The notes: generated by a model not told the origin, from the sequence alone. DNA of 64,000 bases from Patescibacteria group bacterium (GCA_028865305.1 JAGWKM010000003.1:4820-68819); one strand, 5' to 3'; shown: positions 14,210 through 61,923, numbered from the stretch's first letter. Program-made: numbers and translations.

Positions 14210-15634
14210 ATGGAACATAGGCATAAAAAAATCGCAATCCTCGGTTTCGGCAAAGAAGGATATTCGGCGCTCCGGTTTTTGCGGCGCGAACCGCGGTACC
14301 GGCATTCTGATATTTGGATCCTTGATAAGAATGAAAATATAAAGCTGCCCCGCGGCGTTTTTTCACAGCTCGGAGAACATTATCGGGAAGGCCTGGATCG
14401 CTTCGACCTCGTCATCCGTTCGCCGGGGATCTGTTATAAAGCATCAAACGCGACCAGTCCGACCAGAATCTTTTTCGAACATTGCCCGGCGCCGATCATC
14501 GGCGTGACGGGGACGAAGGGAAAGGGAACGACGTCAACGTTGATATATAAGATTCTGAGGGAATGGAGAATGGAGAATGGAGAATGGAATAAAGTTTTTC
14601 TCGTGGGGAATATCGGGAAACCGGCACTGGATATCCTGCCGAAATTGGATAAGAAATCAATTGTTGTCTATGAAATGTCGAGCTTCCAATTGGTCGACTT
14701 GAGACAGAGCCCGCATATCGCGGTGGCGCTCATGATCACTTCGGAACACCTTGATTGGCATAAGAACGTCAAAGAATATCGCGACGCGAAATCGAATATC
14801 GTGAGATACCAGCAAGCAAAAGATTTCGCAGTGTTGGCGCAGGATTATCCAGCAAGCCGGGCTTTCGCAAAATTGACTAAGACAAGCATTTTTTCATTCA
14901 CCCGAAGCGCTGCGCTAAAAAAGGATTATATCCGACGATCGTCCAATCTAATCCTTCGGGGCGCATGGGTTGAGGACGGCTGGTTCTACTTTTCGGATGG
15001 AAAAAAGAAGGAGAAAATTTGCGCGACGGCGGATCTGCAGATACCCGGCGAGCACAACTGGGAAAACGTCGGCGCGGCAATCACGGTGGCGAAGATTCTA
15101 AAAGTGCCGAACGGGGTCATTGCGGAAACGATCCGCAGGTTCAAAGGATTAGAGCACCGGCTCGAATTTGTCGCAAAAAAAGACGGAATCCGCTTCTACA
15201 ATGATTCATATTCCACGACGCCGGAAACGGCGATTGCCGCAATCAGAGCATTCAAGGAACCGAAAATCCTGATCCTCGGCGGTTCATCAAAGGGCAGTGA
15301 TTTCAGGGAATTGGGAGAGGTCATTTCGAAATCGGGCAGCATCCGGGGAATCATCGGGATCGGTGTCGAATGGAAAAGGATAAAGGAGGCAATTCCGACG
15401 CGAAGGCGGAAGGCCATTTCCGCAGATAGAATTTCGTCGCAGGCCGCCGGCCATGAATCAGCGATCCCGGTCGTCGAGAACTGCAAAACCATGAATCAGA
15501 TCGTCCGGGCCGCAAGAAAGCTCGCAAAACCGGGCGATGTAGTCCTCTTGTCGCCGGGTTGCGCCTCGTTCGGAATGTTTAAGAATTACAGCGACCGCGG
15601 CGTGCAGTTCAAGCGAGAGGTGAATGGTGTATAA
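14210..15634 (+). CDS. murD: UDP-N-acetylmuramoylalanine--D-glutamate ligase
   Basis: KIAILGFGKEGYS, GVTGTKGKGTTSTL, GLEHRLEFV and SPGCASFGMFKNYSDRG are classic MurD/Mur-ligase motifs. Confidence 0.9.
   Translation: MEHRHKKIAILGFGKEGYSALRFLRREPRYRHSDIWILDKNENIKLPRGVFSQLGEHYREGLDRFDLVIRSPGICYKASNATSPTRIFFEHCPAPIIGVTGTKGKGTTSTLIYKILREWRMENGEWNKVFLVGNIGKPALDILPKLDKKSIVVYEMSSFQLVDLRQSPHIAVALMITSEHLDWHKNVKEYRDAKSNIVRYQQAKDFAVLAQDYPASRAFAKLTKTSIFSFTRSAALKKDYIRRSSNLILRGAWVEDGWFYFSDGKKKEKICATADLQIPGEHNWENVGAAITVAKILKVPNGVIAETIRRFKGLEHRLEFVAKKDGIRFYNDSYSTTPETAIAAIRAFKEPKILILGGSSKGSDFRELGEVISKSGSIRGIIGIGVEWKRIKEAIPTRRRKAISADRISSQAAGHESAIPVVENCKTMNQIVRAARKLAKPGDVVLLSPGCASFGMFKNYSDRGVQFKREVNGV
14557..14590. 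repeat. GAGAATG-family heptad array in frame inside murD
   Basis: gagggaatggagaatggagaatggagaatggaat encodes REWRMENGEWNK just after the P-loop region. Confidence 0.9.
14921..14956. repeat. Family-C palindrome copy 1 (imperfect), in frame inside murD
   Basis: aaggattatatccgacgatcgtccaatctaatcctt encodes KDYIRRSSNLIL. It is related to the copies at 34854 and 57573. Confidence 0.75.
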
Positions 15635-15711
15635 TGAGAAAAATGGAAAATGTATAATGGAGAATGTGTAATGGGTTGACCCATTCTACATTCTTCGTTA
15701 TACATTCTACT
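15621..15711. repeat. Heptad-periodic hairpin element (purine arm / GGGTTGACCC centre / pyrimidine arm) between murD and gap
   Basis: tgaatggtgtataatgagaaaaatggaaaatgtataatggagaatgtgtaatgggtt | gacccattctacattcttcgttatacattctac. Contains the murD stop codon (TAA 15632-15634). Confidence 0.85.
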
Positions 15712-15721
15712 TGATTATCAA

Positions 15722-16765
15722 ATGGCTAAAACACGCATTGCAATCAACGGTTTTGGGCGGATCGGGCGGCTCTTTTTCCGGGCGGCGTTTGGATTGGAAA
15801 ATGTCGAGATTGTGGCCATCAATGACCTTGGCGACGTGGAAAATTTGGCCTATCTTCTGAAGTACGATACGGTGTACGGCCGGTATGGCAAGGCGGTGAT
15901 GGCTAAACCGGCGGCGGGCGGGGAACCGGGAACCCTGGAAGTGCAGGGAGCGCAGATAAAATTTTTACAGATAAAAGATCCGACCCAGTTGCCGTGGAAG
16001 GACCTCGCGATCGACATCGTGGTAGAATCGACCGGTTTGTTTGATTCCTATGAAAAATCAAAAGTGCATCTCGAAGCGGGCGCGAAGCGGGTCGTGATCA
16101 CGGCGCCGGCGAAGGATGCTGACGGTGATATGGGTAAAACGGTTTTGATCGGCGTGAATGAGGACCAGTTCAAGACCTGCCCGATCACCTCAAACGGTTC
16201 CTGCACAACGAACTCGGCCTCGCCCGTAATCCAGGTGCTTTCCGAAAATCCGGGTATCGTGAAGGCGACGCTTTCAACCGTGCATGCCTACACCGCGACG
16301 CAAAGTTTGGTGGACGGCCCGATCCGCGGCGGCCATGATTTCCGCAAGGGCCGCGCGGCGGCGCATAACACGGTGCCTGAAACGACGGGTGCCGCGATTT
16401 CCGTCGCTCGCGCGATCCCCGAACTGAAGGACAAGTTCGACGGCGTGTCGTTCCGCGTGCCGAACATCACCGGCTCGATTTCGGACATCACCTTTATTGC
16501 CAAGAGGCCGACGAGTGTCGAGGAGATCAACCAGATTCTGACCGATGCGGCAAATTCCGAGCGCTGGCAGGGGATCCTGAAAGTGACGACCGACCAGCTC
16601 GTCTCATCCGACATTATCGGCGAACCCTACGGCGCCATCGTACCGCTCGACCTTACGAAAGTCATCGATGGGGATCTCGTAAAAGTGTTAAGCTGGTACG
16701 ACAACGAGAGCGGGTACGTGAGCACATTGGTGAAACACATACAGAAGGTGGTCGAAGTACTTTGA
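15722..16765 (+). CDS. gap: Type I glyceraldehyde-3-phosphate dehydrogenase
   Basis: RIAINGFGRIGR, active-site SNGSCTTNS and WYDNESGY motifs. Confidence 0.92.
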   Translation: MAKTRIAINGFGRIGRLFFRAAFGLENVEIVAINDLGDVENLAYLLKYDTVYGRYGKAVMAKPAAGGEPGTLEVQGAQIKFLQIKDPTQLPWKDLAIDIVVESTGLFDSYEKSKVHLEAGAKRVVITAPAKDADGDMGKTVLIGVNEDQFKTCPITSNGSCTTNSASPVIQVLSENPGIVKATLSTVHAYTATQSLVDGPIRGGHDFRKGRAAAHNTVPETTGAAISVARAIPELKDKFDGVSFRVPNITGSISDITFIAKRPTSVEEINQILTDAANSERWQGILKVTTDQLVSSDIIGEPYGAIVPLDLTKVIDGDLVKVLSWYDNESGYVSTLVKHIQKVVEVL

Positions 16766-17000
16766 GGATATTTGAAATCAAAATACCATAATCCCGCAAA
16801 TCAGCCGCAACCCGGAGGGCTCTGGCCAAATGCGGCAATAGCTGCGTTCCAAGGAATCCGCAGTGCGCCCAGCACAGCGGATTTCTTGTGTCTTGTTCTT
16901 GCCGCATTTGACCGAGAGCGCGAGCGGAAGATTTTCGAGATGGGGGTCTGCTTTGCCGCCTGGATTCAAGTATGCCGGGGTGGAATAGAAAAGTCCGGTA

Positions 17001-17522
17001 TCAATTGTCCCTTGCCCATTTCTTTGCTCTTTCCGCAAGTGCATCAAGAAACTCGTGTTTCCCATGACTGTAGGATCGATAATCGTTCGGATATTTATTC
17101 AATAGTTTCTGCTTGAGCGCCTCGTATGCCTTAACTGTTTCAGGATGCGCGCGGAGGTAGTCGCGGATATTAAGAATACGCGGCACATGTTCATGGTTCT
17201 TTTTAAAGAAATGGATGTTATAGAGCTTAGTTTCTCCTCTAAATTTTTCGAGCAAGCGGCTATTCGGTTTTACATAATTCGAGCGGAATACATAACCCAG
17301 CTTTTCAAATTTCGTTTTAGCACGGTCAAGTGCATGAAATTCTTTGACGATAACAAGCATATCCACGATCGGCTTTGCACTCATGCCTTTTACCGATGTG
17401 CTGCCGACATGATGGATTTCCAGAGCCGCTTTGCCTAAAACTCGCTTAATTAATTTCTCTTGTATACGAAAACGCCGCTGCCAATTTGCGGTGTATTTTT
17501 CTACGGAGTAATTTCTTGTCAT
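17001..17522 (-). CDS. GrpB-family protein (nucleotidyltransferase-fold)
   Basis: IHHVGSTSVKGMSAKPIVDMLVIV ... RDYLRAHPETVKAYEALK is typical of the GrpB domain. Lies in an AT-rich region. Confidence 0.7.
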   Translation of the reverse strand: MTRNYSVEKYTANWQRRFRIQEKLIKRVLGKAALEIHHVGSTSVKGMSAKPIVDMLVIVKEFHALDRAKTKFEKLGYVFRSNYVKPNSRLLEKFRGETKLYNIHFFKKNHEHVPRILNIRDYLRAHPETVKAYEALKQKLLNKYPNDYRSYSHGKHEFLDALAERAKKWARDN

Positions 17523-18025
17523 GACTTAAATATTGGAATCTTTAATTCTTTCGCTTCTTTCTTTAAAAATTCTTGGATAATCCTGGTGTTTTGGAATTGC
17601 ATTTTATGAAAGGCATCTTTTTTGCGGTGAATAAAAAATTGGCGTTTGTGCTCTTGTATTGGCGGTGCAAGAAAAATTAGTTTGCTGGTTTTAATAAACC
17701 TTTTAGGATCAAGAAAGGCTGCTTCAAGTACAAATCCCTTTTTATGTTTCTTTATCTGCTTGGCAATGGTCGGATCGAGCGCCTTCCGCACATTTAAGAG
17801 CCCCGTGATGATATTTTTTTTCGTTCGTCTGCCAATTGCCTGATACGCTTCCGTGGTCGCCAAAAAATAAAAAGGGTGCTTCGGCAATATCTTGCCTTTT
17901 TGAGCGATGCTTCTGAAAGCATCCGCTTCAATGTGCGGTAATCTCAATTGCTTGGCGAGCTTGCGTGCCAACGCCGTTTTACCTGATCCGGGAACGCCAT
18001 AAACGATAATTCTCCTTTCTCTCAT
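17519..18025 (-). CDS. P-loop NTPase/kinase-like protein
   Basis: Walker A in IIVYGVPGSGKTALARKLA. 4-nt overlap with the downstream GrpB gene. AT-rich. Confidence 0.65.
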   Translation of the reverse strand: MRERRIIVYGVPGSGKTALARKLAKQLRLPHIEADAFRSIAQKGKILPKHPFYFLATTEAYQAIGRRTKKNIITGLLNVRKALDPTIAKQIKKHKKGFVLEAAFLDPKRFIKTSKLIFLAPPIQEHKRQFFIHRKKDAFHKMQFQNTRIIQEFLKKEAKELKIPIFKS

Positions 18026-18122
18026 TTCCGTTATTTTACCAAAGTTTTCTTCTAAATCTGAATTCGCAATAGCTTGTGAACTCGGATTTGGAGCGGGCGA
18101 CTTTCGTCGCCCGCCATTACTG

Positions 18123-18272
18123 TTAGAGTGTGAGTTCCATCGGAATTCCTTTGATTACTACGGTGCCCCTGCCCCTGCAGTCGCAGCATTGTCCTGGCTG
18201 GATGGGAACGCCGTCAACCACATACAGAATGCCAGTGCCGTTGCACCTGAAGCAGGTTACCCGTCGCGACAT
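18123..18272 (-). CDS. 49-aa DnaJ-type zinc-finger mini-protein
   Basis: Two CxxCxGxG motifs (CFRCNGTG, CCDCRGRG). GAGG lies 7 nt upstream of the ATG. A hairpin (18093-18114) follows on the minus strand. Confidence 0.5.
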   Translation of the reverse strand: MSRRVTCFRCNGTGILYVVDGVPIQPGQCCDCRGRGTVVIKGIPMELTL

Positions 18273-18337
18273 TGGAAAACCTCGGATCAGCTGGATGGGC
18301 TTCGGTCTTCTTTTTCCTCTCATCGAGTTTGCCCTTC

Positions 18338-18655
18338 CTAGAACGAAACTTGGGCGAAGCCCTTGCGGGTATGAGCTGAATAGTTGATCTCGATCGGCAC
18401 CTGCTCGAGGAGCACCTGATGCGGGCGAGGCTGTACGATTTTGCAAACCCCTCTGATGGAATACGCGCCACCTTCTTCGGCGCGGTAACGACCGATATTC
18501 GTTACGGCAACGAGAAGATGAGCCTCTTTCCCATTCCATTGGGTGGTAAAGCGCGGTCGTGGCGCTTCGCCGGGATAGTCCTCGTCGTGAAACAGGGATT
18601 CGGCTAGCAACCATCGGTCGGGGCCTTTTGTAATCTCTAAACGTTCGATCTGCAT
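18338..18655 (-). CDS. Hypothetical protein (105 aa)
   Basis: The second in-frame ATG is preceded by AGGAG at 5 nt. Transcribed from the minus-strand member of the divergent promoter pair. Confidence 0.5.
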   Translation of the reverse strand: MQIERLEITKGPDRWLLAESLFHDEDYPGEAPRPRFTTQWNGKEAHLLVAVTNIGRYRAEEGGAYSIRGVCKIVQPRPHQVLLEQVPIEINYSAHTRKGFAQVSF

Positions 18656-18761
18656 ATACTCTCCTAAAGTTTCCATTTGAGGCTGGAAACCATGGCCTTT
18701 TACCTATCCTCTTCGGTAGGCAACCCGCCTATACGGGCGGGAATTTCAAGGTTCTAGGCCT

Positions 18762-18805
18762 ATTTTACCATGCCCTTGACAAATGTCAAGCTACTATGCT
18801 AGAAT
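18762..18805. promoter_or_regulatory. Back-to-back divergent promoters sharing the palindrome TTGACAAATGTCAA
   Basis: Plus strand: TTGACA (18776-18781)-N18-TGcTAGAAT. Minus strand: TTGACA (complement of 18784-18789)-N16-TGgTAAAAT. Both have an extended -10. Confidence 0.6.
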
Positions 18806-18868
18806 ATGGACAGCTAAATCCTGAACCCGTATGGGCAGGTTCCCGCAAGGGATTTCAAAAGAAAGGAG

Positions 18869-19060
18869 ATGCGGGCAAGTGTATTCGCCGACACCAAAGG
18901 CGGAACCGAGTTCGGCCTCTGCAAGCTCGAAAATCGGCGGATGCTGACTGAAAATCAGATGCGCAAGGTAGCCGCCGATCACAAGTTCCGGTTCCTCGAG
19001 AGCGGCATCTTGTCCGTTCGCGACGGCCGAAGCGAAAGTTACATGATCGGCTGCTGCTGA
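18869..19060 (+). CDS. Hypothetical small protein (63 aa)
   Basis: Third codon positions are strongly C/G-biased like real genes here. Lies downstream of the plus-strand divergent promoter. SD spacing is poor (AAGGAG abuts the ATG). Confidence 0.35.
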   Translation: MRASVFADTKGGTEFGLCKLENRRMLTENQMRKVAADHKFRFLESGILSVRDGRSESYMIGCC

Positions 19061-19338
19061 TCGCGGGAGCGACCACTCGCTCCCTATGTATATATTCCTG
19101 ATCACGATCGAACTAGCCGCCGCAGTCGCATTCGGATATGTCTTTGGCTTGGCCATATGCATATGGCTGGACCACAGGCAATCCAAACGAAACCAGTAAG
19201 CGCAACAAGGGTTGAGGCCCCGACAAAAGACCTCCCGCAACTTCGGTTGCGGCTTCCACCAGAGGAGATAATCGAATCTTTTGCGGTGGGAGCTTGCACA
19301 GTCCCAAAATTCAACAGCACCTTAAAGGAGAAGAAATC

Positions 19339-19791
19339 ATGACGACGACCAGTTTGATCACCGGAACCGTGGCGGGCTTCGCGCTCGTCATTGACCCCGC
19401 CAACGAAAAGGGCAAGCGCGAGCGGATTGAATGTCCGGACTTCGCCTCGATAAAAGCTCGTGTTTTGCAGCTCCATCGGGAGAATGTCGCGGCCTACAAC
19501 GCCGATCCGCGGAACTACGACCCCATCGAGACGCATTACTTCACCCTCTACCGTCGCGACGACAACGGCGCGACCGAGGAGGATCAGGCCTTCGACCTGT
19601 CCGGCAATACTAACGTCGGCGATGCCGCGCACAAGAAGTTCTGCAAGTGCGGCAAGTCGAGCTGGTGGAAAAACCGCGAGGGATGGTCGCAGAGCCCGTC
19701 GTACACCTGCGAGGACTGCAACAAGCCGGAAGACGACGGCTACGGCGGCGACTTCAGCGACTACGATGGCGGCCAGGAGCGGGAATACTAA
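19339..19791 (+). CDS. Hypothetical acidic protein with CxC...CxxC cluster (150 aa)
   Basis: AAGGAG 8 nt upstream of ATG 19339, very high GC3, and a terminator-like hairpin with T-tract near 19829-19860. Confidence 0.6.
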   Translation: MTTTSLITGTVAGFALVIDPANEKGKRERIECPDFASIKARVLQLHRENVAAYNADPRNYDPIETHYFTLYRRDDNGATEEDQAFDLSGNTNVGDAAHKKFCKCGKSSWWKNREGWSQSPSYTCEDCNKPEDDGYGGDFSDYDGGQEREY

Positions 19792-20019
19792 CGCCGCTCC
19801 AAGCCGAGCTTGACCGGATTTGTCAGGCAACCGACCAGAAATGGCCGGTTTATTTTTTATTACATTCATCCGGAAATTGAGTATCAGGACCGGCGGGATT
19901 GCCGAATAATCCGGCTCTTTTTGCACATGCGGCTTTCTCCTTCTGGGGCGGGGTATGTTATTATTTTATGAACGGAGGAGCTGGGTTTTTTCGTAATGAA
20001 TTGGGCATTTATACGCAGC

Positions 20020-20135
20020 AGAATGGAGAATGCATAACCCTCTCCATTCTCCATTCTCCATTCTCCATTCTCCATTCTCCATTCTCCATTCTCCATTCTC
20101 CATTCTCCATTCTCCATTCTCCATTCTCCATTCTC
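20020..20135. repeat. Tandem array (CTCCATT)x13 with a short complementary GAATGGAGAATG arm upstream
   Basis: 13 exact units counted from 20042 to 20132. Ends 19 nt before the rpiB ATG. Confidence 0.95.
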
Positions 20136-20153
20136 TTTTTCTACTTCTCCACA

Positions 20154-20609
20154 ATGACCATTTTTCTCGGCGCGGACCATCGCGGCTTCCGCCTTAAAGA
20201 ACAATTGAAGGCAACCTTGAAGACCGACGGCTATAAGATCGAGGATCTCGGCGCGAACGAATACAACGGCAACGATGATTATCCGGACTATGCGCGCGCC
20301 GTCGCGCAGAAGGTGGGCGAGGCGCCGGAGGAGAACCGTGGGATTTTGATCTGCGGATCCGGCTCGGGCGTTGATATTGTGGCGAACAAGTTCAAGGGTG
20401 TGCGCTCGGTGCTCGCGATGTCTCCGGACCACGCGTACATGGCGCGGCACGATGATGACGTAAACGTGCTTGCGATCGCGTCGGATTTCACCGACGAGCC
20501 GGCGGCGCGGAGCATGATGCGGTCATTCCTCACGACGCCGTTTGCGAAGCTTGAAGACAGGTATACGAGGAGATTGAGGAAAATCGAGGAGATCGAGTCG
20601 GGAAAATAG
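20154..20609 (+). CDS. rpiB: Ribose-5-phosphate isomerase B (RpiB/LacAB family)
   Basis: MTIFLGADHRGFRLKEQL, ILICGSGSGVDIVANKFKGVRS and RHDDDVNVLAI motifs. Start set by homology at ATG 20154. Confidence 0.88.
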   Translation: MTIFLGADHRGFRLKEQLKATLKTDGYKIEDLGANEYNGNDDYPDYARAVAQKVGEAPEENRGILICGSGSGVDIVANKFKGVRSVLAMSPDHAYMARHDDDVNVLAIASDFTDEPAARSMMRSFLTTPFAKLEDRYTRRLRKIEEIESGK

Positions 20610-20631
20610 CAATGGCGGCCGGCCGGGAAAA

Positions 20632-21093
20632 TTATTTCCTTCTCGAAAAGTGGAAAAAGGCGTCGAGCCCCAGATACTGGCCGGCTTTGGCAAAGATGAT
20701 GATGAGGAGGCAGAGGATCAGGATTACGCCGTCGTTGATGAACTGCGCAAGCGTGAGGTTCGCGTAATGCACGACCGGCAAATAGCCGATGACGGTGAGC
20801 GCGATGCCGGCGGCCGAGGCGAGCGTGGTCAAAAAACCGACGGCGAGGCAGATGCCGGCGAGGAGGAACGCCCAGGACGAGAATGGGTGGAGCCAGGCCG
20901 TCGCGGCGGCATTCGAGGTATCCATGAACCGATAGAGCTGGCCGAAGGACTGTTTTTCAAGCTCCGGCACCAGGGATCCGTTCCAAAGGGTGCTCCAGCC
21001 GAGATAAAAGAAATCCAGGCCGAGCGCGACGCGGAGGAGGAAAACAAGGAACCGGAGGTGGTGCGGGAGTTTGGTGCCTTGCGGGAGGTTCAT
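20632..21093 (-). CDS. DoxX-like integral membrane protein
   Basis: Four predicted TM segments. FLLRVALGLDFFYLGWS resembles the DoxX N-terminal motif. Confidence 0.55.
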   Translation of the reverse strand: MNLPQGTKLPHHLRFLVFLLRVALGLDFFYLGWSTLWNGSLVPELEKQSFGQLYRFMDTSNAAATAWLHPFSSWAFLLAGICLAVGFLTTLASAAGIALTVIGYLPVVHYANLTLAQFINDGVILILCLLIIIFAKAGQYLGLDAFFHFSRRK

Positions 21094-21123
21094 TGTATAA
21101 TCAGTTTATCATATCCGATAGAT

Positions 21124-21240
21124 GACGGAGAACGGAGCATAGAGAATGGGGTATAGCATAGGTTGCCCATTCTCCATTCTTCGATCTCCATTCTCCGTTA
21201 TTCATTCTCCATTCTCCATTCTCCATTGCCCATTCTGCCT
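21124..21240. repeat. Heptad-periodic hairpin element in the divergent intergenic region
   Basis: gacggagaacggagcatagagaatgggg...ttgcccattctccattcttcgatctccattctccgttattcattctccattctccattctccattgcccattctgcc. Confidence 0.85.
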
Positions 21241-21244
21241 CCCC

Positions 21245-21760
21245 ATGGAAGATTATAAAAAACACTCGCTCGGACATCGGGCTTTCACCCGCTTCTTTTT
21301 CAAGAAGATCAGGCCGTTTATAGTCGTGCTTATTATCACGCTTGCGGCTTGGTACGCCGAACGCTGGGTGCCGTTCGTTTACGTCCCTTATGCCGACTAC
21401 GCCGTCATGCTGTTATGGGTAGTCACCCTGCTCGCCTTGCTCCTTACCTTTTTATACGCCTATCTGGAATACCGGTATTATACTTACACTTTCACCGATG
21501 AAGCATTCATCATCACCTACGGCTATATGGTGCGGAACGAGGTCGCGGCGGTGTACCACCAGATCCAGAACGTGAACCTTCGGCGGAGCGTGCTTGACCG
21601 GTTTATGGGCGTGAGCGAGGTCGTGATCCTGATGGCCGGCATCGACCGCGAGGACCGGAGGAACCAGATTTCACTGCCGGCAATCGGCAAGACGAAAGCG
21701 CGGATCGTCCAGAAAGAGCTGCTCCAGCGCGCGAGGAAACACTTCATGGTAAATTCCTGA
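21245..21760 (+). CDS. Membrane protein with bacterial PH domain (bPH_2/YdbS-like)
   Basis: Two N-terminal TM helices, then YTFTDEAFIITYGYMVRNEVAAVYHQIQNVNLRRSVLDRFMGVSEVVI, typical of bPH_2. Confidence 0.7.
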   Translation: MEDYKKHSLGHRAFTRFFFKKIRPFIVVLIITLAAWYAERWVPFVYVPYADYAVMLLWVVTLLALLLTFLYAYLEYRYYTYTFTDEAFIITYGYMVRNEVAAVYHQIQNVNLRRSVLDRFMGVSEVVILMAGIDREDRRNQISLPAIGKTKARIVQKELLQRARKHFMVNS

Positions 21761-21784
21761 TCTCTCATTTAAAAAGGAGAGATC

Positions 21785-22303
21785 ATGCCTCCTTGGCCAG
21801 CCATCATTCCCGTTTTCCTGCTTCAGGAGTTCGCTTCGGTTGCCGCGCTCCTCGCGTTCGCCTATGGTCACGGCGGGGATCTTTTGGCGCTCCATTTTGC
21901 CTGGGTCGCGGCGACCTTCGTTGACCTTTTCGCCGGATACCTGGTCGGGAAATGGCTTGGCGACCGGTTCCGGAATGCGCGCTTGAGACAATGGCTCCAG
22001 CGCTTCGCGGAAAAATGGCAGGGTCGGGTGGGCAAAAGCGGGCAGGCGCTGTCGCTCCTGTTTTTGGGGTTTCTTTTGTATCCGTATCTCGCCGCGTTCA
22101 TCGCGGCCTGGGCCGGCGTGTCGCTGAACGATGCGGTCTTTTACCTTTTGCTTGGCAATATCGCCTGGTACCTTTTCGCATGGGGCGCGGCCATCGGACT
22201 CACGGCTCTCGTGCCGAATTTCGAATGGCTGATCGTGGTCATCATCAGCCTTGCGATCGCATTGAGCGTGGTATTCGAGCGGATTCGCCGGAAGGTGTTT
22301 TAA
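21785..22303 (+). CDS. Polytopic membrane protein, family not recognised
   Basis: Hydrophobic 172-aa ORF with at least four TM segments. SD-like GGAGAG upstream. Confidence 0.6.
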   Translation: MPPWPAIIPVFLLQEFASVAALLAFAYGHGGDLLALHFAWVAATFVDLFAGYLVGKWLGDRFRNARLRQWLQRFAEKWQGRVGKSGQALSLLFLGFLLYPYLAAFIAAWAGVSLNDAVFYLLLGNIAWYLFAWGAAIGLTALVPNFEWLIVVIISLAIALSVVFERIRRKVF

Positions 22304-22304
22304 C

Positions 22305-22368
22305 GGGGAAAAAAGAAAAAAAGGAACAAAGGAAAAAGAGAACGGGATGTCTTCCTTTTTCTTCCTAT
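22305..22368. repeat. Purine-arm/pyrimidine-arm hairpin between convergent genes
   Basis: ggggaaaaaagaaaaaaaggaacaaaggaaaaagagaacggg atg tcttcctttttcttcc. Confidence 0.6.
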
Positions 22369-23954
22369 TTTACGTAGAACACGCTGCTGCTCGGCGTGCC
22401 TTTCGGAATTTCACCGGTCTCGTCAGGCAGAAGATAGGTGATATGGCGCGCCAGTTGCGTTGACGTAGTGAACGAATCGGTCACGAACATCACGGTTTCC
22501 GCCGGCACCGGAATGCCGCGCGCGATGACGCCGCCCGCTTCGACAACTACGTATTTCGGCTCACCCAGCGGCAAGGCGTTGATTTGGTTCCCGATCGCAA
22601 CGTAATCTGCGTTGAAAGCTCCCGGCACGTTTGAATTTTCGGCCCAGACGACGAAGTAATCATAGTAGGCATAAATCGCAACGGCCGCCAAAAAAACAGC
22701 CGCAATCACCGGAGGGAGCCATTGAAGACGATCTTTAAAAAAGACGGCCCTTAAGGATCGATACGCCCAAATGCCGCCGATGGCGGCAAAGATCACGGTT
22801 GGCGGCAGCATGAGAATCGACCGGAGCGCGTGCGGGATGCCTTCGTCCGACGCGGCGGCGGGAAGGAGCGCAAGGAGGAACCAGGAGAGGAGAAGCGAAG
22901 TGACAAATGACAAATGACTCATGACAAACGAACGCCTTGATTTCCAAAGCTGATAAATGCTCCAGATGATTCCGGTTATAAATAATATTCCCACGGGCCA
23001 CCAGAGTTCCGGCGCGCTCGCGATGTTCTGCCGCCAATTGTTGTCGCCGCGGACATTCAGCATAAGCAAAGTTTTCGCGACATTTGTCATGAAGTCGCCG
23101 ATCGGATTTTTCGCGTTGGTAACCGCAATTTGCGACGTCCTGCCGAAGAAATCACCGGGATGCTGGAGGAAGTAGACGCCGATCGGCAGGGCTATGATGA
23201 AAGCGGCGAAACAGAATAAAAGCATTTTTTTCCAAAAGCCCGGCGTTTTCCGGAAGAACGGGATGAAAAGCAAAAAGAGCAGGGGAGTGATGCGGTAGGC
23301 GATGTAGGTGTAAAAACCGAGGCCGTAGATGATGCCGGCGGAGATGATACAGAGCATGGAGAATGGAGAATGGAGAATGGAATATTCCCCGTTCAGTCCT
23401 CCGTCCTCCGTCCTCCGTCCTCGGAGCCCCTTCAGCAAAAAATACACTGCCCAAACGAGGCAAAGCGGCGCCAAAATTGCCCGGAATCCGATCCTCGAAA
23501 AAATGATATGCCAAAAACTGGTTGCGAGGAGAAAAGCGGAGAGGAGGGCAAGCACAGGACCCGGAAATTCGAACCCGGAGAATGGAATGCTGCCGGCTTC
23601 CGTTTCCGGGCTTCCGCTTTCCCTTTTTTTAAATAACTCCGCAACCAGGAAATACATTCCGAACACCGTGAGTATTCCCGCAATCGCCGCCGGCAGGCGG
23701 ACGACCCACGGCTCATGCCCGAACCATTTGATGAAAAAGACCAATATGTTCACGTAAAGCCCTTCCCGGCCGTTGTCCTCGACATAGAACGGCTGGAACG
23801 AAGCGGTGCCGTGGACGATTTCGAGCGCATTGTTGCCGTCCATCGCCTCGTCCGGATAAAGTCCCGGAGGTGTCGCCGTGATGTGATATAATCGAAGGAA
23901 GGCGGCAAATACAAGGATACCGACGAGCAGCAGAACTTTAATGCCGGTGCGCAT
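22365..23954 (-). CDS. Family-39 glycosyltransferase (ArnT/PMT-like)
   Basis: RLYHITATPPGLYPDEAMDGNNALEI N-terminal loop motif and more than 10 TM segments. Confidence 0.8.
   Translation of the reverse strand: MRTGIKVLLLVGILVFAAFLRLYHITATPPGLYPDEAMDGNNALEIVHGTASFQPFYVEDNGREGLYVNILVFFIKWFGHEPWVVRLPAAIAGILTVFGMYFLVAELFKKRESGSPETEAGSIPFSGFEFPGPVLALLSAFLLATSFWHIIFSRIGFRAILAPLCLVWAVYFLLKGLRGRRTEDGGLNGEYSILHSPFSMLCIISAGIIYGLGFYTYIAYRITPLLFLLFIPFFRKTPGFWKKMLLFCFAAFIIALPIGVYFLQHPGDFFGRTSQIAVTNAKNPIGDFMTNVAKTLLMLNVRGDNNWRQNIASAPELWWPVGILFITGIIWSIYQLWKSRRSFVMSHLSFVTSLLLSWFLLALLPAAASDEGIPHALRSILMLPPTVIFAAIGGIWAYRSLRAVFFKDRLQWLPPVIAAVFLAAVAIYAYYDYFVVWAENSNVPGAFNADYVAIGNQINALPLGEPKYVVVEAGGVIARGIPVPAETVMFVTDSFTTSTQLARHITYLLPDETGEIPKGTPSSSVFYVK
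22900..22930. repeat. CATTTGT-family heptads in frame inside the GT39 gene
   Basis: gtgacaaatgacaaatgactcatgacaaacg. The coding strand gives SFVMSHLSFVTS. Confidence 0.8.
23355..23423. repeat. Two adjacent heptad arrays (GAGAATG x3-4, then GTCCTCC x4) in frame inside the GT39 gene
   Basis: catggagaatggagaatggagaatggaatat ... gtcctccgtcctccgtcctccgtcctcg. The coding strand gives RRTEDGGLNGEYSILHSPFSM. Confidence 0.9.
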
Positions 23955-23980
23955 AGTACCAGTATAGCATCTATAAAATT

Positions 23981-24128
23981 ACTAATATCTAATTAATAAT
24001 TAATAACGAATGTCCAAGGTTAAATTTCCAACGGACATTCGGTCATTATCCATTCGTTATTAATTATTAATTAGAAATTTCCCCAACAATCCATTCGTTA
24101 TTAATTAGATATTATTAATTAGAAATTT
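23981..24128 (+). repeat. Family-A AT-rich palindromic element, copy A1 (full length)
   Basis: 22-bp perfect inverted repeat AATTAATAATTAATAACGAATG (23991-24012) / CATTCGTTATTAATTATTAATT (24051-24072) with a 38-nt loop. A third arm follows after AGAAATTTCCCCAACAATC. Confidence 0.9.
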
Positions 24129-24135
24129 ACCTCTC

Positions 24136-24552
24136 ATGGACCAGCCCCAATCTTTCGAACAGCGCCTCGAATCCGATATGCACCAGCTTGCGGAGCAGGT
24201 TGCGGCCCAGCGCGAACGGCCGGAAATGAAAGGCATGCGCGAGCAGGAGCTTTTAAAAGAGGCAATCCGTGCTTTTCCGGGCGTCCCGCGGCCGCCGCAG
24301 GAATTGAAAGCGCAAACATTGCCGCAATCGCCTTCGGCCGCCGCAATGAGCCCTTTGCCGGCCTACGCGCAATCCGCTTCGCCTGAAACAAAATTGGAGA
24401 TCGAGCACCTGATTGAGGTCGCGTTCAGCAAGGGAGTGGTCGAAGCATTCGCAGAGGCGGAAAAATCATCGTATTTCGTGGAGGACGCGCTTGTGGACGC
24501 CCTCGCCGGAAAGTTGTATCCGATTTTGCAAGCGAAAAAATTGATAAACTAA
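24136..24552 (+). CDS. Hypothetical protein (138 aa)
   Basis: ORF with coding-like composition directly upstream of pilC. No family recognised. Confidence 0.5.
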   Translation: MDQPQSFEQRLESDMHQLAEQVAAQRERPEMKGMREQELLKEAIRAFPGVPRPPQELKAQTLPQSPSAAAMSPLPAYAQSASPETKLEIEHLIEVAFSKGVVEAFAEAEKSSYFVEDALVDALAGKLYPILQAKKLIN

Positions 24553-24566
24553 TGTAATGGTCAGTC

Positions 24567-24600
24567 CATTTGTCATTTGTCATTTGTCATTTGTCATTTG
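24567..24600. repeat. Tandem (CATTTGT)x~5 immediately upstream of pilC
   Basis: catttgtcatttgtcatttgtcatttgtcatttg ends 7 nt before ATG 24608. Confidence 0.9.
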
Positions 24601-24607
24601 ATCACCC

Positions 24608-25684: not shown

Positions 25685-25734
25685 TGAGTTGTCGTCCTGG
25701 GCCTGGCCCGGATCCAGGGCGTTGAAAAATGACT

Positions 25735-25885
25735 GATTAATAATATCTAATTAATAACGAATGGATTGTTGGGGAAATTTCTAATTAATAATTAATAATT
25801 AATAACGAACGCCTAATGCTCGAATGTCCATCAGACATTTCTCCTTGGATATTCGTTTTAATTATTAATTAGACATTATTAATTT
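25735..25885 (-). repeat. Family-A element, copy A2 (inverted relative to A1)
   Basis: ttaataatatctaattaataacgaatggattgttggggaaatttctaattaataattaataattaataacgaa...attcgttttaattattaattag. The head is the reverse complement of the A1 tail. Confidence 0.88.
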
Positions 25886-25948
25886 CAAACCTCGATCCCG
25901 GCCTGCCTGCCGGACAGGCATGCTCGGAGACCGGGATGACAGAATAAT

Positions 25949-27703: not shown

Positions 27704-27802
27704 AAAGTGGGGACCAGCAAACAGCGATAAGAAAACAATTCTGGATTCATTCATTTTACTTTTTTTCCCGCTCCCCGCTCCCTGGTTCTTATTGTCTCCC
27801 TG

Positions 27803-28504: not shown

Positions 28505-28587
28505 ATGCCTATTATACGCATCTCCCCGGAAATCCGGTGAAGCAATAAAAAATCGCCCGAACCGGATCGGGCGACCGAAAGAGCCAT

Positions 28588-29598: not shown

Positions 29599-29660
29599 GC
29601 TGTGCTCCTTTTTAGATGGACTGCTTTCCTTCTACTCCGAAAACAGAAGGAAAGCAAGGG

Positions 29661-30728: not shown

Positions 30729-30818
30729 AACAAAGGAATTATAGCAGATAAAAAGGTTGATTTGACCAATTTGCGGCAGGATAATATCATTCCGATAGGA
30801 ACTTATCGAGATAAATTT

Positions 30819-31259: not shown

Positions 31260-31277
31260 GCAGGGTTCCGTCCGCCG

Positions 31278-32460: not shown

Positions 32461-32461
32461 G

Positions 32462-53812: not shown

Positions 53813-53853
53813 CCTTTCTGTCATGCTGATGCTCTGCCGAAGAATCTTATCTG

Positions 53854-53998
53854 AAATTTCTAATATCTAATTAATAATTAATAACGAATGTCTAAAGTTA
53901 AATTTCCAACGGACATTTGGCATTACACATTCGTTATTAATTAGTCATTATTAATTAGATATTTCCCCAACAACACATTCGTTATTAATTAGAAATTT
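53854..53998 (+). repeat. Family-A element, copy A4 (full length)
   Basis: gaaatttctaatatctaattaataattaataacgaatg...cattcgttattaattag...atttccccaacaacacattcgttattaattagaaattt. Confidence 0.9.
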
Positions 53999-54040: not shown

Positions 54041-54763
54041 ATGAAAAATATTATTGATTGCAAAAACATCCAAAAGACTTACGGCGCAGGCGACACGGCG
54101 ACCGTGGTCCTGAAGGGCGTAACGTTCTCCGTAAAGGAGGGGGAGTTTGTGGCGATCATGGGGCCGTCCGGTTCCGGCAAATCAACGTTGATGCACATCA
54201 TCGGCTGTCTCGATACGCCGACCGGCGGGGAATATTTGATTGACGGCAGGGATGTTTCCAAGTTAAGCGATGACGAACTTGCCGATATCCGTCGCGAGAA
54301 GATCGGTTTCGTCTTCCAGGCGTTTAATCTTTTGCCGCGAACGACTGTCCTGCGGAATGTTTCGTTGCCGCTCATTTATGAAGGTGTCGAGAAAACGAAA
54401 CGCGAAGGGATTGCCGAAAGGGCATTGGCCGATTCCGCTTTTCCGCAGAAATTTTGGTACCACCATTCAAACCAGCTTAGCGGCGGTATGATGCAGCGCG
54501 TGGCGATCGCCCGGTCGCTCGTCAATAATCCGGCGCTCATTTTGGCGGACGAGCCGACCGGCAACCTGGATTCAAAGACCGGCGAGACCGTCCTCGGTAC
54601 GTTCCAAAACCTGAATGAGAAGCAAGGCAAGACGATCGTCTTGATCACCCATGAGCGCTATGTCGCCGAACACGCCGACCGGATCATCCATATTTTAGAC
54701 GGGAAGATCGTGCAGGAGGAGTCGAATGGCGTGCACCAGAGGAAAGCGACAATCAATGTCTAA
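54041..54763 (+). CDS. MacB/LolD-type ABC transporter ATP-binding protein
   Basis: GPSGSGKSTLMHIIG, LSGGMMQRVAIARSL and LILADEPTGNLD. Confidence 0.9.
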   Translation: MKNIIDCKNIQKTYGAGDTATVVLKGVTFSVKEGEFVAIMGPSGSGKSTLMHIIGCLDTPTGGEYLIDGRDVSKLSDDELADIRREKIGFVFQAFNLLPRTTVLRNVSLPLIYEGVEKTKREGIAERALADSAFPQKFWYHHSNQLSGGMMQRVAIARSLVNNPALILADEPTGNLDSKTGETVLGTFQNLNEKQGKTIVLITHERYVAEHADRIIHILDGKIVQEESNGVHQRKATINV

Positions 54764-54906
54764 TGTCTAATTAATAATTAATAACGAATGTGTAAAGTTA
54801 AATTTCCAACGGACATTCGGACATTATCCATTCGTTATTAATTATTAATTAGATATTTCCCCAACAATCCATTCGTTATTAATTAGGCATTATTAATTAG
54901 AAATTA
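54758..54906 (+). repeat. Family-A element, copy A5 (full length; overlaps the ATPase stop codon)
   Basis: gtctaatgtctaattaataattaataacgaatg...cattcgttattaattattaattag...atttccccaacaatccattcgttattaattaggcattattaattag. Confidence 0.9.
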
Positions 54907-56234: not shown

Positions 56235-56388
56235 ACTAATTAATAATATCTAATTAATAACGAATGCATTGTTGGGGAAATTTCTAATTAATAATATCTA
56301 ATTAATAACGAATGAATAATGTTCGAATGTCCGTTGGAAATTTAACCTTGGACATTCGTTATTAATTATTAATTAGATATTAGAAATT
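56235..56388 (-). repeat. Family-A element, copy A6 (inverted relative to A4/A5)
   Basis: ctaattaataatatctaattaataacgaatgcattgttggggaaatttctaattaataatatctaattaataacgaatg...cattcgttattaattattaattag. Confidence 0.9.
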
Positions 56389-56417
56389 ACAAAAGGTCGT
56401 CGATACAGAAACAAATT

Positions 56418-57668: not shown

Positions 57669-58946
57669 GTGAAAAAACGAGTCCTTGAAATCACCATCGT
57701 CGCGGTTCTTGGTGTTGCCCTCCTCGGCAGCGGTTTTTGGCTTGGCTGGACGACGGGCCGGAAATATCCGACGAATCTCGTGATCACGGGAGTAGGTTCG
57801 AGCACCTTGGCGCAGGCATCGAGCGTTGCCGATTTCAGCATCTTTTGGCAGGCCTGGCAGGATATCAACGACCTCTATCTTCGGAATCCCGATATTTCAA
57901 GCACGGCAAAGGTTTATGGCGCCGTGAATGGGTTGGTGCAGTCGCTTGGCGACCCCTACACCGAATTCTTCGCTCCGGCGGACAGCCAGCAGTTTCAGCA
58001 GAACATTCAGGGCAGCTTCGGCGGCATCGGCGCGGAGCTTGGCGGCAACCTGGCAAACGAGATTGTCATAATCGCCCCGCTCAAGGGTTCGCCGGCGGAG
58101 GCGGCCGGTTTGAAACCTGGCGACATCATCCTTGGCGTGAACGGCAGCTCGACCGCAGACATGACGGTTGACCAGGCGGTAATGTTGATCCGCGGTCCGG
58201 TCGGGCAAAAAGTGACCCTGACCATCGGCCGCACCGGCTGGAATGCTCCGAAAGATTTCACCATCACCCGCCAGACCGTCCAAGTGCCGCTCGTCGATTT
58301 TGAGATGAAAGGGGACATCGCGCATATTTCCGTCCACCAATTCGACCAGGAAACGGGGCGGCAGTTTTACAATGCCCTCGTGCAGGCGGTGAACCATAAC
58401 GCGAAGGGGATCGTGCTTGACCTCCGCGGCGATCCGGGCGGCTATCTGGAAGTCGCCGTGGAGCTCGCGGGTTATTTCCTGAAACCGGGATCGCTCGTTG
58501 TGAAGGAAGTTGGCCGCGCGGTGCCGGAGCAGGATTTTACGTCTTCCGGCAACGGGGCGCTCGCGAACCTGCCGATGGCGGTTCTGATCGACAGCGGTTC
58601 GGCTTCGGCATCGGAGATCCTTGCCGGTGCGCTGCACGATGACCGGAAAATTCCGCTTGTCGGCACAAAGAGTTTCGGGAAAGGAACGGTGCAGGAATTG
58701 GAGCAGCTTTCCGACGGTTCATCGATCAAAATAACGGTTGCGCATTGGGTCATGCCGTCCGGCCTCATAATCGACCATAAGGGCATCATGCCGGATTACG
58801 CCGTGACGCTTACCGACCAGGATATCCAGAGCAAAAATGACACGCAGCTCGCGAAGGCCCTCCAGGTAGTGCAGGCGGAAATAGACGGCAAGCCGCTGCC
58901 AACGCCGACACCTGTATCAAGCACGGCATCGTCGAGTTCATCGTAG
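57669..58946 (+). CDS. S41-family C-terminal processing peptidase (PDZ-containing)
   Basis: GIGAELG, PDZ motif LKPGDIILGVNG, GIVLDLRGDPGGYL and SASASEILAGAL. GTG start, N-terminal TM. Confidence 0.88.
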   Translation: MKKRVLEITIVAVLGVALLGSGFWLGWTTGRKYPTNLVITGVGSSTLAQASSVADFSIFWQAWQDINDLYLRNPDISSTAKVYGAVNGLVQSLGDPYTEFFAPADSQQFQQNIQGSFGGIGAELGGNLANEIVIIAPLKGSPAEAAGLKPGDIILGVNGSSTADMTVDQAVMLIRGPVGQKVTLTIGRTGWNAPKDFTITRQTVQVPLVDFEMKGDIAHISVHQFDQETGRQFYNALVQAVNHNAKGIVLDLRGDPGGYLEVAVELAGYFLKPGSLVVKEVGRAVPEQDFTSSGNGALANLPMAVLIDSGSASASEILAGALHDDRKIPLVGTKSFGKGTVQELEQLSDGSSIKITVAHWVMPSGLIIDHKGIMPDYAVTLTDQDIQSKNDTQLAKALQVVQAEIDGKPLPTPTPVSSTASSSSS

Positions 58947-59009
58947 AATGTATAAAGCGGAATGTATAATGGTTTACCCCCTCTGCTTTCTACGTTATAC
59001 ATTCTGCCC
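58943..59009. repeat. Heptad-periodic hairpin element between the S41 peptidase gene and rplI
   Basis: gtagaatgtataaagcggaatgtataatggtttaccccctctgctttctacgttatacattctgccc. Contains the peptidase stop TAG. Confidence 0.85.
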
Positions 59010-61243: not shown

Positions 61244-61538
61244 ACAATCTTATTCTAGCTTTTACTGCATTTATTTCAAATTTCATTAAATAGTCATTAA
61301 ATGAAATTTGACTTTGAATTTAGGGTCACTAACCTGGAAAATAAAGTCGAAAAATAAGCCATTTTCATATAACATGACCCTGGAAAATCTGGTTCAAATG
61401 AACCGGAAGCAATTCCTGCCGCTCGAGGATAAATGGACGATGGATTTGCAATATTAGGCAGCAAACTCGACGAATTGCTTCGTGATATAAGAGAGAAGAA
61501 TAAACGGGCGGAGAAATTGGAAGGAGCCGTATTGTAAT

Positions 61539-61576
61539 AAAAAATCGGATGCTCCCTTTGGATATCCGAAATTTTT
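61539..61576. terminator. Bidirectional hairpin downstream of rpmA
   Basis: AAAAAA-TCGGAT...ATCCGA-AATTTTT, 2 nt from the rpmA stop. Confidence 0.6.
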
Positions 61577-61577
61577 C

Positions 61578-61853
61578 TTACGCCATCACGCTGACTACCG
61601 TTGCCCTTCTTGGCGAGCCGTCGAATTTTGTCTTGGTTTTTGACGAAAACTTTACAATGCCATTCTTGCCGGCGTAGAGTGTGTCGTCGCCCGCGCGGAT
61701 GACATTCGCGCCCGGCAGGTATTTCGTGCCGCGCTGACGGAGGATAATCTGGCCGACGAGCGCCTTCTGGCCGTCATTGATCTTGACGCCAAGGCGCTTT
61801 GCGATGGAATCGCGGCCTAATTTTGTTGAACCGATAGCTTTAGTATGGGCCAT
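61578..61853 (-). CDS. rpmA: 50S ribosomal protein L27
   Basis: MAHTKAIGSTKLGRDSIAKRLGVK...GQIILRQRGTKYLPGANV is the bL27 signature. Start set at MAHTK. Confidence 0.92.
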   Translation of the reverse strand: MAHTKAIGSTKLGRDSIAKRLGVKINDGQKALVGQIILRQRGTKYLPGANVIRAGDDTLYAGKNGIVKFSSKTKTKFDGSPRRATVVSVMA

Positions 61854-61856
61854 TGC

Positions 61857-61923
61857 GGGGAGAATGAAGAATGAAGAACGAAAAATGGGTAAACCATTCT
61901 GCCTTCTCCAATCTACTTTCTGC
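61857..61923. repeat. Heptad-periodic hairpin element immediately upstream of rpmA (minus strand)
   Basis: ggggagaatgaagaatgaagaacgaaaaatgggtaaaccattctgccttctccaatctactttctgc. Confidence 0.85.

Follow-up and report, generated by a model that had tools for sequence, protein, structure and literature searches.

The window studied here, a stretch of 64,000 nucleotides (nt) of DNA from a Patescibacteria group bacterium (GCA_028865305.1, JAGWKM010000003.1; contig C243:4820-68819), contains palindromes of tandem heptanucleotide repeats, here called heptad elements, which lie exactly between the stop codon of one gene and the start codon of the next. A purine-rich arm contains or adjoins the upstream stop codon, and a pyrimidine-rich arm ends at or shortly before the downstream ATG. 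Throughout the genome the purine arm comes first almost without exception, and the 16S rRNA of the organism lacks the anti-Shine-Dalgarno sequence CCUCC. At about even chances, we read the elements as fast-evolving heptamer-repeat palindromes whose polarity has been filtered by start-codon selection on a ribosome that does not use Shine-Dalgarno (SD) pairing. All functional statements below are inferred from sequence.

Geometry and chirality of the heptad elements

An earlier, sequence-only reading of the window had described ten genes (gap, rpiB, a bPH gene, pilC, aspS, ndk, an ABC permease gene, uvrA, rplI and rpmA) at which a pyrimidine-rich arm or array ends close to the start codon, and five upstream genes whose stop codon is supplied by a purine arm. 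All ten start-codon cases are present in the sequence as described, and the stop codons of murD, aspS, the NUDIX gene, prfA and the S41 peptidase gene each lie inside a purine-arm heptad of the GTATAAT or GTAGAAT type (Table 1). The coordinates of arms and arrays were obtained with Tandem Repeats Finder (TRF) and an inverted-repeat search, and gene names and starts were checked by alignment to Pfam profiles. The alignments agree with the names of the genes and with the majority of their start codons: L9 residues 1-47 aligned with profile positions 1-47, L27 residue 2 with position 1, RpiB residue 3 with position 1 and GAPDH residue 5 with position 2, and the ABC-2 alignment began within 1-5 residues. 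The start of ndk was not supported by Pfam, the NDK match beginning only at residue 96. The ndk product (34223-34807) matches the NDK profile in two stretches, the best from residue 96, which suggests that its N-terminal half carries an insertion, perhaps derived from repeats.

Hairpin strength was evaluated with RNAfold against 200 dinucleotide shuffles of each element. The hairpins at gap, rpmA, rplI, bPH and ndk were more stable than all 200 shuffles, and at uvrA one of the 200 equalled the native sequence. The two arms of the gap hairpin are 42 nt each and 76% complementary. The hairpin upstream of aspS was weak, and RNAfold showed none at pilC or at the ABC permease gene. At rpiB the z-score was -6.5, yet just a 13-bp hairpin formed at the 5' end of that element; the rest of the 95-nt array (about 100 nt of sequence) was unpaired and the centroid structure unfolded. 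At the bPH gene the pyrimidine array as a whole spans 21167-21236, and it extends unpaired from the stem to 21236. In the inverted-repeat search the stems measured 22-55 nt at 73-100% complementarity, and the long arrays (rpiB, C242:8900 and C309:14341) were mostly unpaired.

The 2.0-Mb bin that holds the window (G000, 388 contigs) is a composite. Twenty-nine of its contigs (830 kb), the window among them, carry orthologs of a genome of the same genus (G001) and behave as one genome of the Candidate Phyla Radiation (CPR); they form the core, to which all statements on the organism refer. The density of heptad arrays was 52 per 100 kb in the core contigs vs 8 per 100 kb in the rest of the bin; this heptad-poor remainder (roughly 1.16 Mb) uses SD motifs, which precede 30% of its genes vs 10.5% in the core. 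When alleles with and without elements were sought inside the composite bin, the window contig was found to have no homologous contig. About 174 kb of small bin contigs align with one another at 65-95% identity.

A census of orientation and distance was carried out with gene calls from a home-made, crude codon-usage open reading frame caller, some of whose starts are wrong, and neither orientation nor distance proved to be random. Period 7 leads the tandem repeats, with 470 of 1551 TRF rows and a further 135 rows of period 14, and comprises 181 distinct heptad units, among them GGAGAAT, GTAGAAT, TAATTAA and GGAACAA. In co-directional spacers, 25 of 51 sense-pyrimidine arrays lay within 10 nt of a start (6.7 expected for a uniform position within each spacer) and only 2 of 51 within 10 nt of a stop, whereas 28 of 48 sense-purine arrays lay within 10 nt of a stop (9.3 expected on the same basis; Fisher p = 3e-8).

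The elements had been interpreted as oriented intercistronic punctuation, with the purine arm always on the 5' side of the downstream gene. They are real, non-random and placed exactly between stop and start, and the arm order is as claimed, but much of this orientation is strand-symmetric chirality. Because a palindrome with a purine arm followed by a pyrimidine arm reads alike on both strands, the arm order follows automatically whatever the direction of the gene, and only the chirality of the palindrome is free to vary. This was purine-arm-first at 28:1 among heptadic palindromes in an unbiased palindrome search (binomial p = 1e-7), 30:1 among adjacent skewed arrays and 23:0 in the core contigs when scored by G/C content. 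Non-heptadic palindromes were also biased in the purine-pyrimidine direction (67 vs 36) and were enriched in convergent spacers. Heptadic hairpins occurred in 20 co-directional, 3 convergent and 1 divergent spacers, close to the genome baseline of 80/10/10%.

A true polarity relative to the genes exists but is weaker than the chirality. It is seen in the sister species (G001), where the asymmetric loop motifs TA[TG]AGTGAA and GCGGAA were in the sense orientation in 13/13 co-directional spacers, and weakly in arm lengths: the sense pyrimidine arrays exceeded the purine arrays in length (medians of 31 and 28.5 nt, p = 0.04; at least 42 nt in 11 vs 4). They were also more homogeneous than the purine arms. 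Lone arrays were considered as an independent test of orientation and dropped, since they are not independent of the palindromes; most are expanded pyrimidine arrays with a degenerate purine arm.

Translation starts and the 16S rRNA tail

Alignment of the 16S rRNA (C184:1-413, locus L072, continuing in C236:20418-22482) to the Rfam small-subunit model placed its 3' end at GGAUCAAUUAAACA, without CCUCC. The sequence follows the model through GGAUCA and then reads AUUAAACA where CCUCCUU is expected. The tail GGAUCAAUUAAACA was found in most of the 17 relatives read (family and order); a few had other tails, and CCUCC was present in none. The relatives of the organism are CPR genomes of 0.5-1.3 Mb. 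SD-like motifs stood upstream of 10.5% of core genes vs 7.0% in a control window, which does not amount to an enrichment. A replacement pairing with the new tail was also considered and rejected, as no k-mer of TGTTTAATTGATC was enriched upstream of starts. Since there is neither an anti-SD nor an SD enrichment, the ten genes follow a rule that applies to all genes in lacking an SD motif, which is then no property of the hairpins, and the GGAG and CTCC content of the arms has no ribosomal partner. The 5' half of the 16S rRNA (C236:20418-22157) takes up 1740 nt where the model has positions 9-873, a difference that points to a putative insertion of about 870 nt; large insertions are common in CPR rRNA genes.

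At 53 genes the motif TAnAAT is separated from the ATG by exactly 6 nt, in many cases with a preceding TGn; examples in the window precede the genes at 29661-30728 and 31447-31926, both on the minus strand. TAnAAT-N6-ATG is characteristic of leaderless mRNAs, and a leaderless transcript seems likely for many genes. C was favoured at positions -1 and -2, with CC at -2/-1 in 112 of the 606 core genes.

ATG is avoided upstream of starts even where there are no repeats. The 45 nt before such starts contained 375 ATG vs 490 CAT (p = 1e-4), and the sister species showed 235 ATG vs 283 CAT (p = 0.04). Downstream of stops without repeats, no ATG/CAT asymmetry was found in either genome. Repeat-bearing windows followed this rule more strongly, the numbers of ATG and CAT being 30 vs 127 upstream of starts and 98 vs 37 downstream of stops. 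The sense-pyrimidine arrays contained 3.7% G, an ATG in 1 of 51 and no stop codon in 47 of 51; the sense-purine arrays held 79 ATG and 89 stops in total.

Turnover, transcription and competing explanations

In the sister species, of whose genome 463 kb were read, heptads were as abundant as here (193 period-7 rows), but built of other units, AGGGTAT/CCCTAAA. The repeat (CCATTCT)3 was matched 120 times here, and 117 of the 120 other genomes in the order had no match. Among 114 conserved junctions, repeats were present in both species at 9, only here at 15, only there at 14 and in neither at 76, so that 29 of the 38 repeat-bearing orthologous junctions were occupied in one species only. The 9 shared junctions nevertheless exceed the approximately 4.8 expected (odds ratio 3.3, one-sided p = 0.02). 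Where one species has an element, the spacer of the other measures -14 to about 30 nt, including 4-nt overlaps. The elements thus occupy what used to be tiny spacers, hence their contact with both codons.

Hairpins of unrelated sequence are found in the two species upstream of rpiB and after prfA; at rpiB, that of the sister species abuts the ATG. The spacer orthologous to NUDIX-prfA contains in the sister species an intact hairpin free of cargo. In G001 the first TAGGGTA heptad often provides the stop codon, as its TAG, and a gap of 0-4 nt separates the C-rich arm from the ATG; orthologous junctions of the ribosomal-protein operon carry elements too. A chirality with the G-rich arm first was considered as a universal rule and rejected: seven palindromes of the sister species, of the families AATCCTT...AAGGATT and AATTTTC...GAAAATT, are reversed, and these have ATG in neither arm. 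The C-rich arm (CCCTAAA)n of the main family of the sister species (loci L045, L060 and L067) is identical to the plant-type telomere heptamer, a likeness that is probably coincidence.

The elements are very probably transcribed, to judge from their operon positions and from promoter candidates upstream of them. In the ribosomal-protein operon (S10/spc-type, C48:4685-12556), a palindromic repeat element of 66-213 nt was found at nearly every junction, and the elements therefore cannot be efficient terminators. The best -10 candidates of gap, bPH, aspS and rpmA precede the hairpin in its entirety, which would put both arms in the 5' leader. The sequence TGTATAAT occurs upstream of the bPH hairpin, at about 21097, and at the murD stop, where it is homologous to the gap promoter of G001. 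TAGAAT stands upstream of the entire rpmA hairpin, and upstream of the aspS element there is a canonical terminator (32584-32626) together with a promoter-like site, in which the first heptad provides the -10, TAGAAT. The further proposal that the elements are strand-selected RNA structures was not supported. The 50 repeat-bearing co-directional spacers folded better as the sense strand in 23 cases and as the antisense strand in 26 (Wilcoxon p = 0.34), with 158 G-U pairs in the sense vs 212 in the antisense direction.

In the explanation that we favour, palindromes of tandem heptanucleotide repeats would arise at a high rate in the tiny stop-to-start spacers, by growth or insertion, the arrays themselves probably forming by slippage or copying, and would be carried inside operon mRNAs and 5' leaders. 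A ribosome without an anti-SD would rely on leaderless mRNAs and SD-independent initiation, and an AUG just upstream of the genuine start would be a liability for it. Selection would keep the arm that touches the start free of AUG and stop codons and poor in G, so that it would be unable to fold on itself. The complementary arm, with an ATG every 7 nt and stops in several frames, would be pushed to the far side, where it overlaps and supplies the upstream stop. Because such a ribosome would not tolerate an AUG-rich arm beside the start, only one chirality would survive in ATG-bearing families. The polarity would then be a selective filter and not a built-in function.

Several observations weigh against this explanation. 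The hairpins after the 16S 3' end and the arms that flank PF05635 genes (described below) also have the G-rich arm first, though the filter would act only at starts. Chirality is uniform within each family, and the seven reversed palindromes of the sister species fit the copying of a master element equally well. The purine arm still puts AUGs 30-60 nt upstream of the start, and the gene starts come from a crude model. Furthermore, the shared occupancy of orthologous junctions (p = 0.02) and the 13/13 sense loops hint at a function or at directional insertion.

One such function, which is somewhat improbable, would be translational coupling. The base of the stem would juxtapose the upstream stop and the downstream AUG, and the terminating ribosome would melt the base and re-initiate on the AUG-free arm, which would let internal cistrons be expressed without SD pairing. 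The proximity of stops to purine arms (28 of 48) and of AUGs to pyrimidine arms (25 of 51) is consistent with this, as is the lack of an anti-SD and of SD use. The elements replace the 4-nt overlaps and 7-nt spacers of coupled genes, the genes being retained; they are present in the two species at almost all junctions of the ribosomal-protein operon, and unrelated sequences share orthologous spacers above chance. However, when bridging of stop and start was scored as both lying within 10 nt of one stem base, it was seen in 17 of 42 repeat spacers (40%) vs 57 of 171 other spacers of 40-200 nt (33%), no excess, and it was rejected as a distinguishing feature. The sense strand has no folding advantage, and the long arrays at rpiB, C242:8900 and C309:14341 are mostly unpaired. 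In addition, rpmA and bPH lie in divergent spacers and aspS follows a terminator and promoter, so that these genes have no upstream co-directional partner.

A wider proposal, which we consider somewhat improbable, is that of an order-wide punctuation. With the anti-SD tail replaced, the stem would juxtapose stop and start or serve as a substrate for RNase III, and ribosomes adapted to leaderless initiation could thereby express internal genes, while repeats would rebuild the device rapidly at any junction.

Processing by an RNase III-type enzyme is unlikely. The cut stems would separate cistrons and leave short-leader mRNAs for a leaderless-type ribosome, and the elements might derive from mobile hairpins akin to rRNA intervening sequences, some copies having a PF05635 gene in the loop. 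Stems of 20-40 bp, an RNase III gene on a core contig (C309:13138-13797, 251 bits) and the heptad hairpin after the 16S 3' end all agree with this. So does the presence of PF05635 between the arms at two sites in the window and on contigs C47 and C253, the family being known from excised 23S intervening sequences (PMC4990558), and a hairpin of heptamer repeats in a 5' untranslated region (5'-UTR) is a target of the enzyme in Haemophilus influenzae (PMC12721329). However, many stems are just 73-81% complementary, the sense strand is not favoured, cuts within the stem would leave leaders of 10-20 nt and not leaderless ends, and the H. influenzae hairpin has the opposite chirality.

It is very unlikely that the elements are terminator-plus-promoter modules, in which the hairpin and its pyrimidine tail would end one transcript and -10-like heptads of the purine arm (TATAAT or TAGAAT, and TATAGT in the sister species) would restart transcription in the loop, leaving the pyrimidine arm alone as an unstructured leader. 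TATAAT or TAGAAT heptads do lie next to the loop at gap, ndk, rplI and three ribosomal-protein junctions, TATAGTGAA has the sense orientation in 8/8 cases from the sister species, the gap and rplI elements have TATAAC in their antisense copies, and the greater length of the sense pyrimidine arrays given above would also fit. A promoter in the purine arm was nevertheless rejected, as TAnAAT occurred 28 times in sense and 29 times in antisense, and the difference for TATAAT (12 vs 5) was not significant. Many purine arms have no heptad of the TAnnnT type, and the best -10 at gap, bPH, aspS and rpmA is upstream of the whole hairpin. The elements also have no U-tract, canonical terminators occur elsewhere, and a terminator consensus scan gave no terminator-like match inside the heptad elements of 15500-35450. 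Only the hairpin at 3861-3882 fits the definition of a G+C-rich stem with a U-tract. It had been credited with the same geometry as the heptad elements, and it does run into the ATG of a SpoU/TrmH-like gene, but it is an ordinary terminator with a GC stem and a U-tract and not a heptad element.

The suggestion of the sequence-only reading that the GGAG-rich arm sequesters or mimics SD or anti-SD sequences is contradicted by the 16S sequence and barely credible. In its favour, the commonest purine unit has GGAG at 7-nt intervals and the pyrimidine arm CTCC. Against it, the 16S rRNA lacks CCUCC here and in the 17 relatives, SD motifs are not enriched in the core contigs, and GGAG is missing from the heptads of the sister species and of other families.

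For the choice of start codons inside operons without SD pairing this organism is an extreme case, as it lacks any anti-SD, shows a distinct leaderless promoter signature and measurably avoids AUGs upstream of starts. Hundreds of recent insertions before essential genes, sorted by selection, amount to a natural experiment, and since selection would have sorted them, their polarity would show what an SD-less ribosome tolerates beside a start. If the hairpins prove to be coupling or processing devices, they represent a new way to organise polycistronic expression. If not, they provide rules for gene finders in CPR genomes, in which long, ATG-rich, stop-free repeats mislead start calling.

Related repeat systems, rRNA-associated hairpins and other features

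The elements are best read as the CPR version of the heptamer simple-sequence repeats of cyanobacteria, Beggiatoaceae and other bacteria. In the open-access literature, no paper was found on such elements, or on the loss of the anti-SD, in CPR bacteria, and no Rfam family matched anywhere in the window. Repetitive extragenic palindromic (REP) sequences, bacterial interspersed mosaic elements (BIME) and bidirectional terminators are intergenic imperfect palindromes, the terminators having an A-tract before and a U-tract after the stem and thus being purine-first. The heptad elements share the intergenic imperfect palindrome with all of these and the purine-first chirality with the terminators. 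They differ in having neither a U-tract nor a conserved REP sequence, in showing no enrichment in convergent spacers (3/24) and in lying inside a ribosomal-protein operon. GTAG, a REP-type end, occurs in the GTAGAAT heptads, but the element families are too diverse for a single REP.

TAACTGA heptamers form direct repeats in marine Beggiatoaceae and in some Cyanobacteria and Bacteroidetes, and were proposed to act in translational control (MacGregor 2015, PMC4679880). In both systems, tandem 7-nt units run toward start codons, the largest TAACTGA class ending 1 nt upstream of the start (PMC4679880). Most of the genes downstream have no recognisable ribosome-binding site, some arrays overlap the end of the upstream open reading frame, and ribosomal-protein operons are affected (PMC4679880). 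The unit TAACTGA itself is not the one used here, whereas start-proximal arrays without a ribosome-binding site are common to both. In contrast to the elements described here, the TAACTGA repeats are of one unit, are direct with a single inverted pair, and occur in hosts whose 16S rRNA has a canonical anti-SD (PMC4679880). Here there are more than 100 species-specific units, mostly in purine/pyrimidine palindromes that reach from stop to start, in a host without an anti-SD. New relative to the TAACTGA repeats are therefore the palindromic layout, the fixed chirality, the many species-specific units and the anti-SD-less host.

For heptanucleotide long simple-sequence repeats and the cyanobacterial short tandemly repeated repetitive (STRR) sequences, polymerase slippage has been proposed as the origin (Mrazek et al. 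2007, as summarised in PMC4679880). According to that summary, period 7 is strongly over-represented in them, with many units that are mostly non-coding, as is the case here. The dominance of the 7-nt period and the rapid change of unit and copy number between relatives were both found in our genomes. As far as we know, these repeats have not been described as lying from stop to start, as having a fixed chirality or as pairing into palindromes.

An (ATCTTTC)n hairpin in the 5'-UTR of hmw1A of H. influenzae is processed by RNase III, and transcription and RNase III are even required for the change in repeat number (PMC12721329). As in that system, one of the two arms of a long hairpin, in what would be the 5' leader, consists of heptamer repeats, the repeat number changes fast, and the host encodes RNase III, so that both a long stem in a predicted transcript and the enzyme are present. 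The hmw1A repeat, however, concerns a single phase-variable adhesin locus, its pyrimidine repeat is the 5' arm and its other arm is not a repeat, whereas hundreds of housekeeping junctions are involved here.

PF05635 is the intervening-sequence protein of 23S rRNA, a four-helix bundle, and its genes were found exactly between a purine and a pyrimidine arm at four sites (Table 1). The flanking arms belong to three different heptad families, and both cassettes of the window have in common the left-end sequence attaaaaa(a)tt(c)attaaataac.tttgca. Intervening sequences of 23S rRNA with such an open reading frame (S23p/PF05635) are known from Coxiella and Leptospira and are excised by RNase III (PMC4990558). 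The four arrangements here likewise have a long stem with the four-helix-bundle gene in its loop. They differ in lying in spacers of protein genes (NUDIX/prfA and ABC ATPase/permease) and not in helix 25 or 45, and most copies of the elements are gene-free.

A further PF05635 gene, at C236:20135-20440, lies directly against the 16S gene on its 5' side. Directly after the 16S 3' end, a heptad hairpin with the G-rich arm first was found both here (C184:426-496) and in the relative G014 (C40), and G001 has a G-rich heptad arm at this place (C44). The units are unrelated among the genomes (loci L084 and L085), and in other relatives the hairpin at this place is not built of heptads.

Table 1. Position, strand, distance to the start codon and predicted folding of the elements and associated features (window coordinates unless a contig is named)
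Feature	Position	Strand	Arm or array to ATG	RNAfold	Details
murD-gap element	15629-15720	+	1 nt	-34.3 kcal/mol, z -6.3	GTATAAT heptad holds murD stop TAA 15632-15634; purine arm 15635-15676, loop GGGTTGACCC, pyrimidine arm 15679-15720; gap ATG 15722
rpiB upstream element	20020-20135	+	18 nt	z -6.5	short purine arm AGAATGGAGAATG, then (TCTCCAT)13.6 at 20041-20135; ATG 20154
bPH-gene upstream element	21122-21236	+	8 nt	-39.7 kcal/mol, z -3.7	divergent spacer; arms 21122-21154 and 21169-21201; ATG 21245
pilC upstream lone array	24567-24600	+	7 nt	z +0.23, no hairpin	(CATTTGT)4.9; ATG 24608
aspS upstream element	32638-32716	+	17 nt	z -1.9	(GTAGAAN) purine arm 32638-32671; ATG 32734
aspS upstream pyrimidine arm	32678-32716	+			(CATTCTC/CATCTTC) units
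aspS-ndk element	34139-34224	+	0 nt	z -3.1	aspS stop TAG 34144-34146 in GTAGAAT heptad; loop GGGTTAACCC
aspS-ndk pyrimidine arm	34201-34224	+			overruns into ndk ATG at 34223
NUDIX purine half-arm	35379-35416	+			contains stop TAG 35400-35402; partner arm 1.09 kb off
Cargo between half-arms	35417-36506				PF05635 gene 35474-35881 (+); methyltransferase gene 35851-36519 (-)
prfA half-arm	36507-36540	-			pyrimidine on + strand, purine on prfA sense strand; stop TAA 36526-36528
ABC ATPase-permease element	38833-39351	+	3 nt	no hairpin	arms split by second PF05635 cassette; purine arm 38833-38859, four-helix-bundle (4HB) gene 38921-39289, pyrimidine arm 39320-39351; permease ATG 39355
uvrA upstream element	44545-44633	+	about 12-13 nt	-27.0 kcal/mol, z -2.9	(AGAAGGA)-type purine arm and T/C-rich arm; ATG 44646
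S41 peptidase-rplI element	58941-59008	+	about 10 nt	z -3.8	stop TAG 58944-58946 in GTAGAAT heptad; loop GGTTTACC; rplI ATG 59019
rpmA upstream element	61857-61927	-	7 nt	-25.5 kcal/mol, z -4.9	divergent spacer; sense pyrimidine arm 61861-61887; ATG 61853
Intrinsic terminator	3861-3885	+		-13.8 kcal/mol, z -2.8	GAGGCC...GGCCUC plus U6, into ATG 3883 of SpoU/TrmH-like gene
PF05635 cassettes	35417-36506; 38860-39319; C47:~19786-20250 (L092); C253 (L093)				first two in the window
AT-rich palindrome family	23976-24128; 25774-25889; 40124-40226; 53853-53965; 54755-54906; 56236-56393				

Two other palindrome families were observed. The first is AT-rich (CTAATTAATAATTAATAACGAATG ... CATTCGTTATTAATTATTAATTAG) and occupies the same kind of stop-to-start spacers; in the sister species, some of the orthologous junctions carry a heptad hairpin in its place. 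The second is a family of palindromic spacers around TGTCATCCCGG...CCGGGATGACA, which is common to both species (for example C78:1892-2140, C215:14755-14948 and L035:8400-8530).

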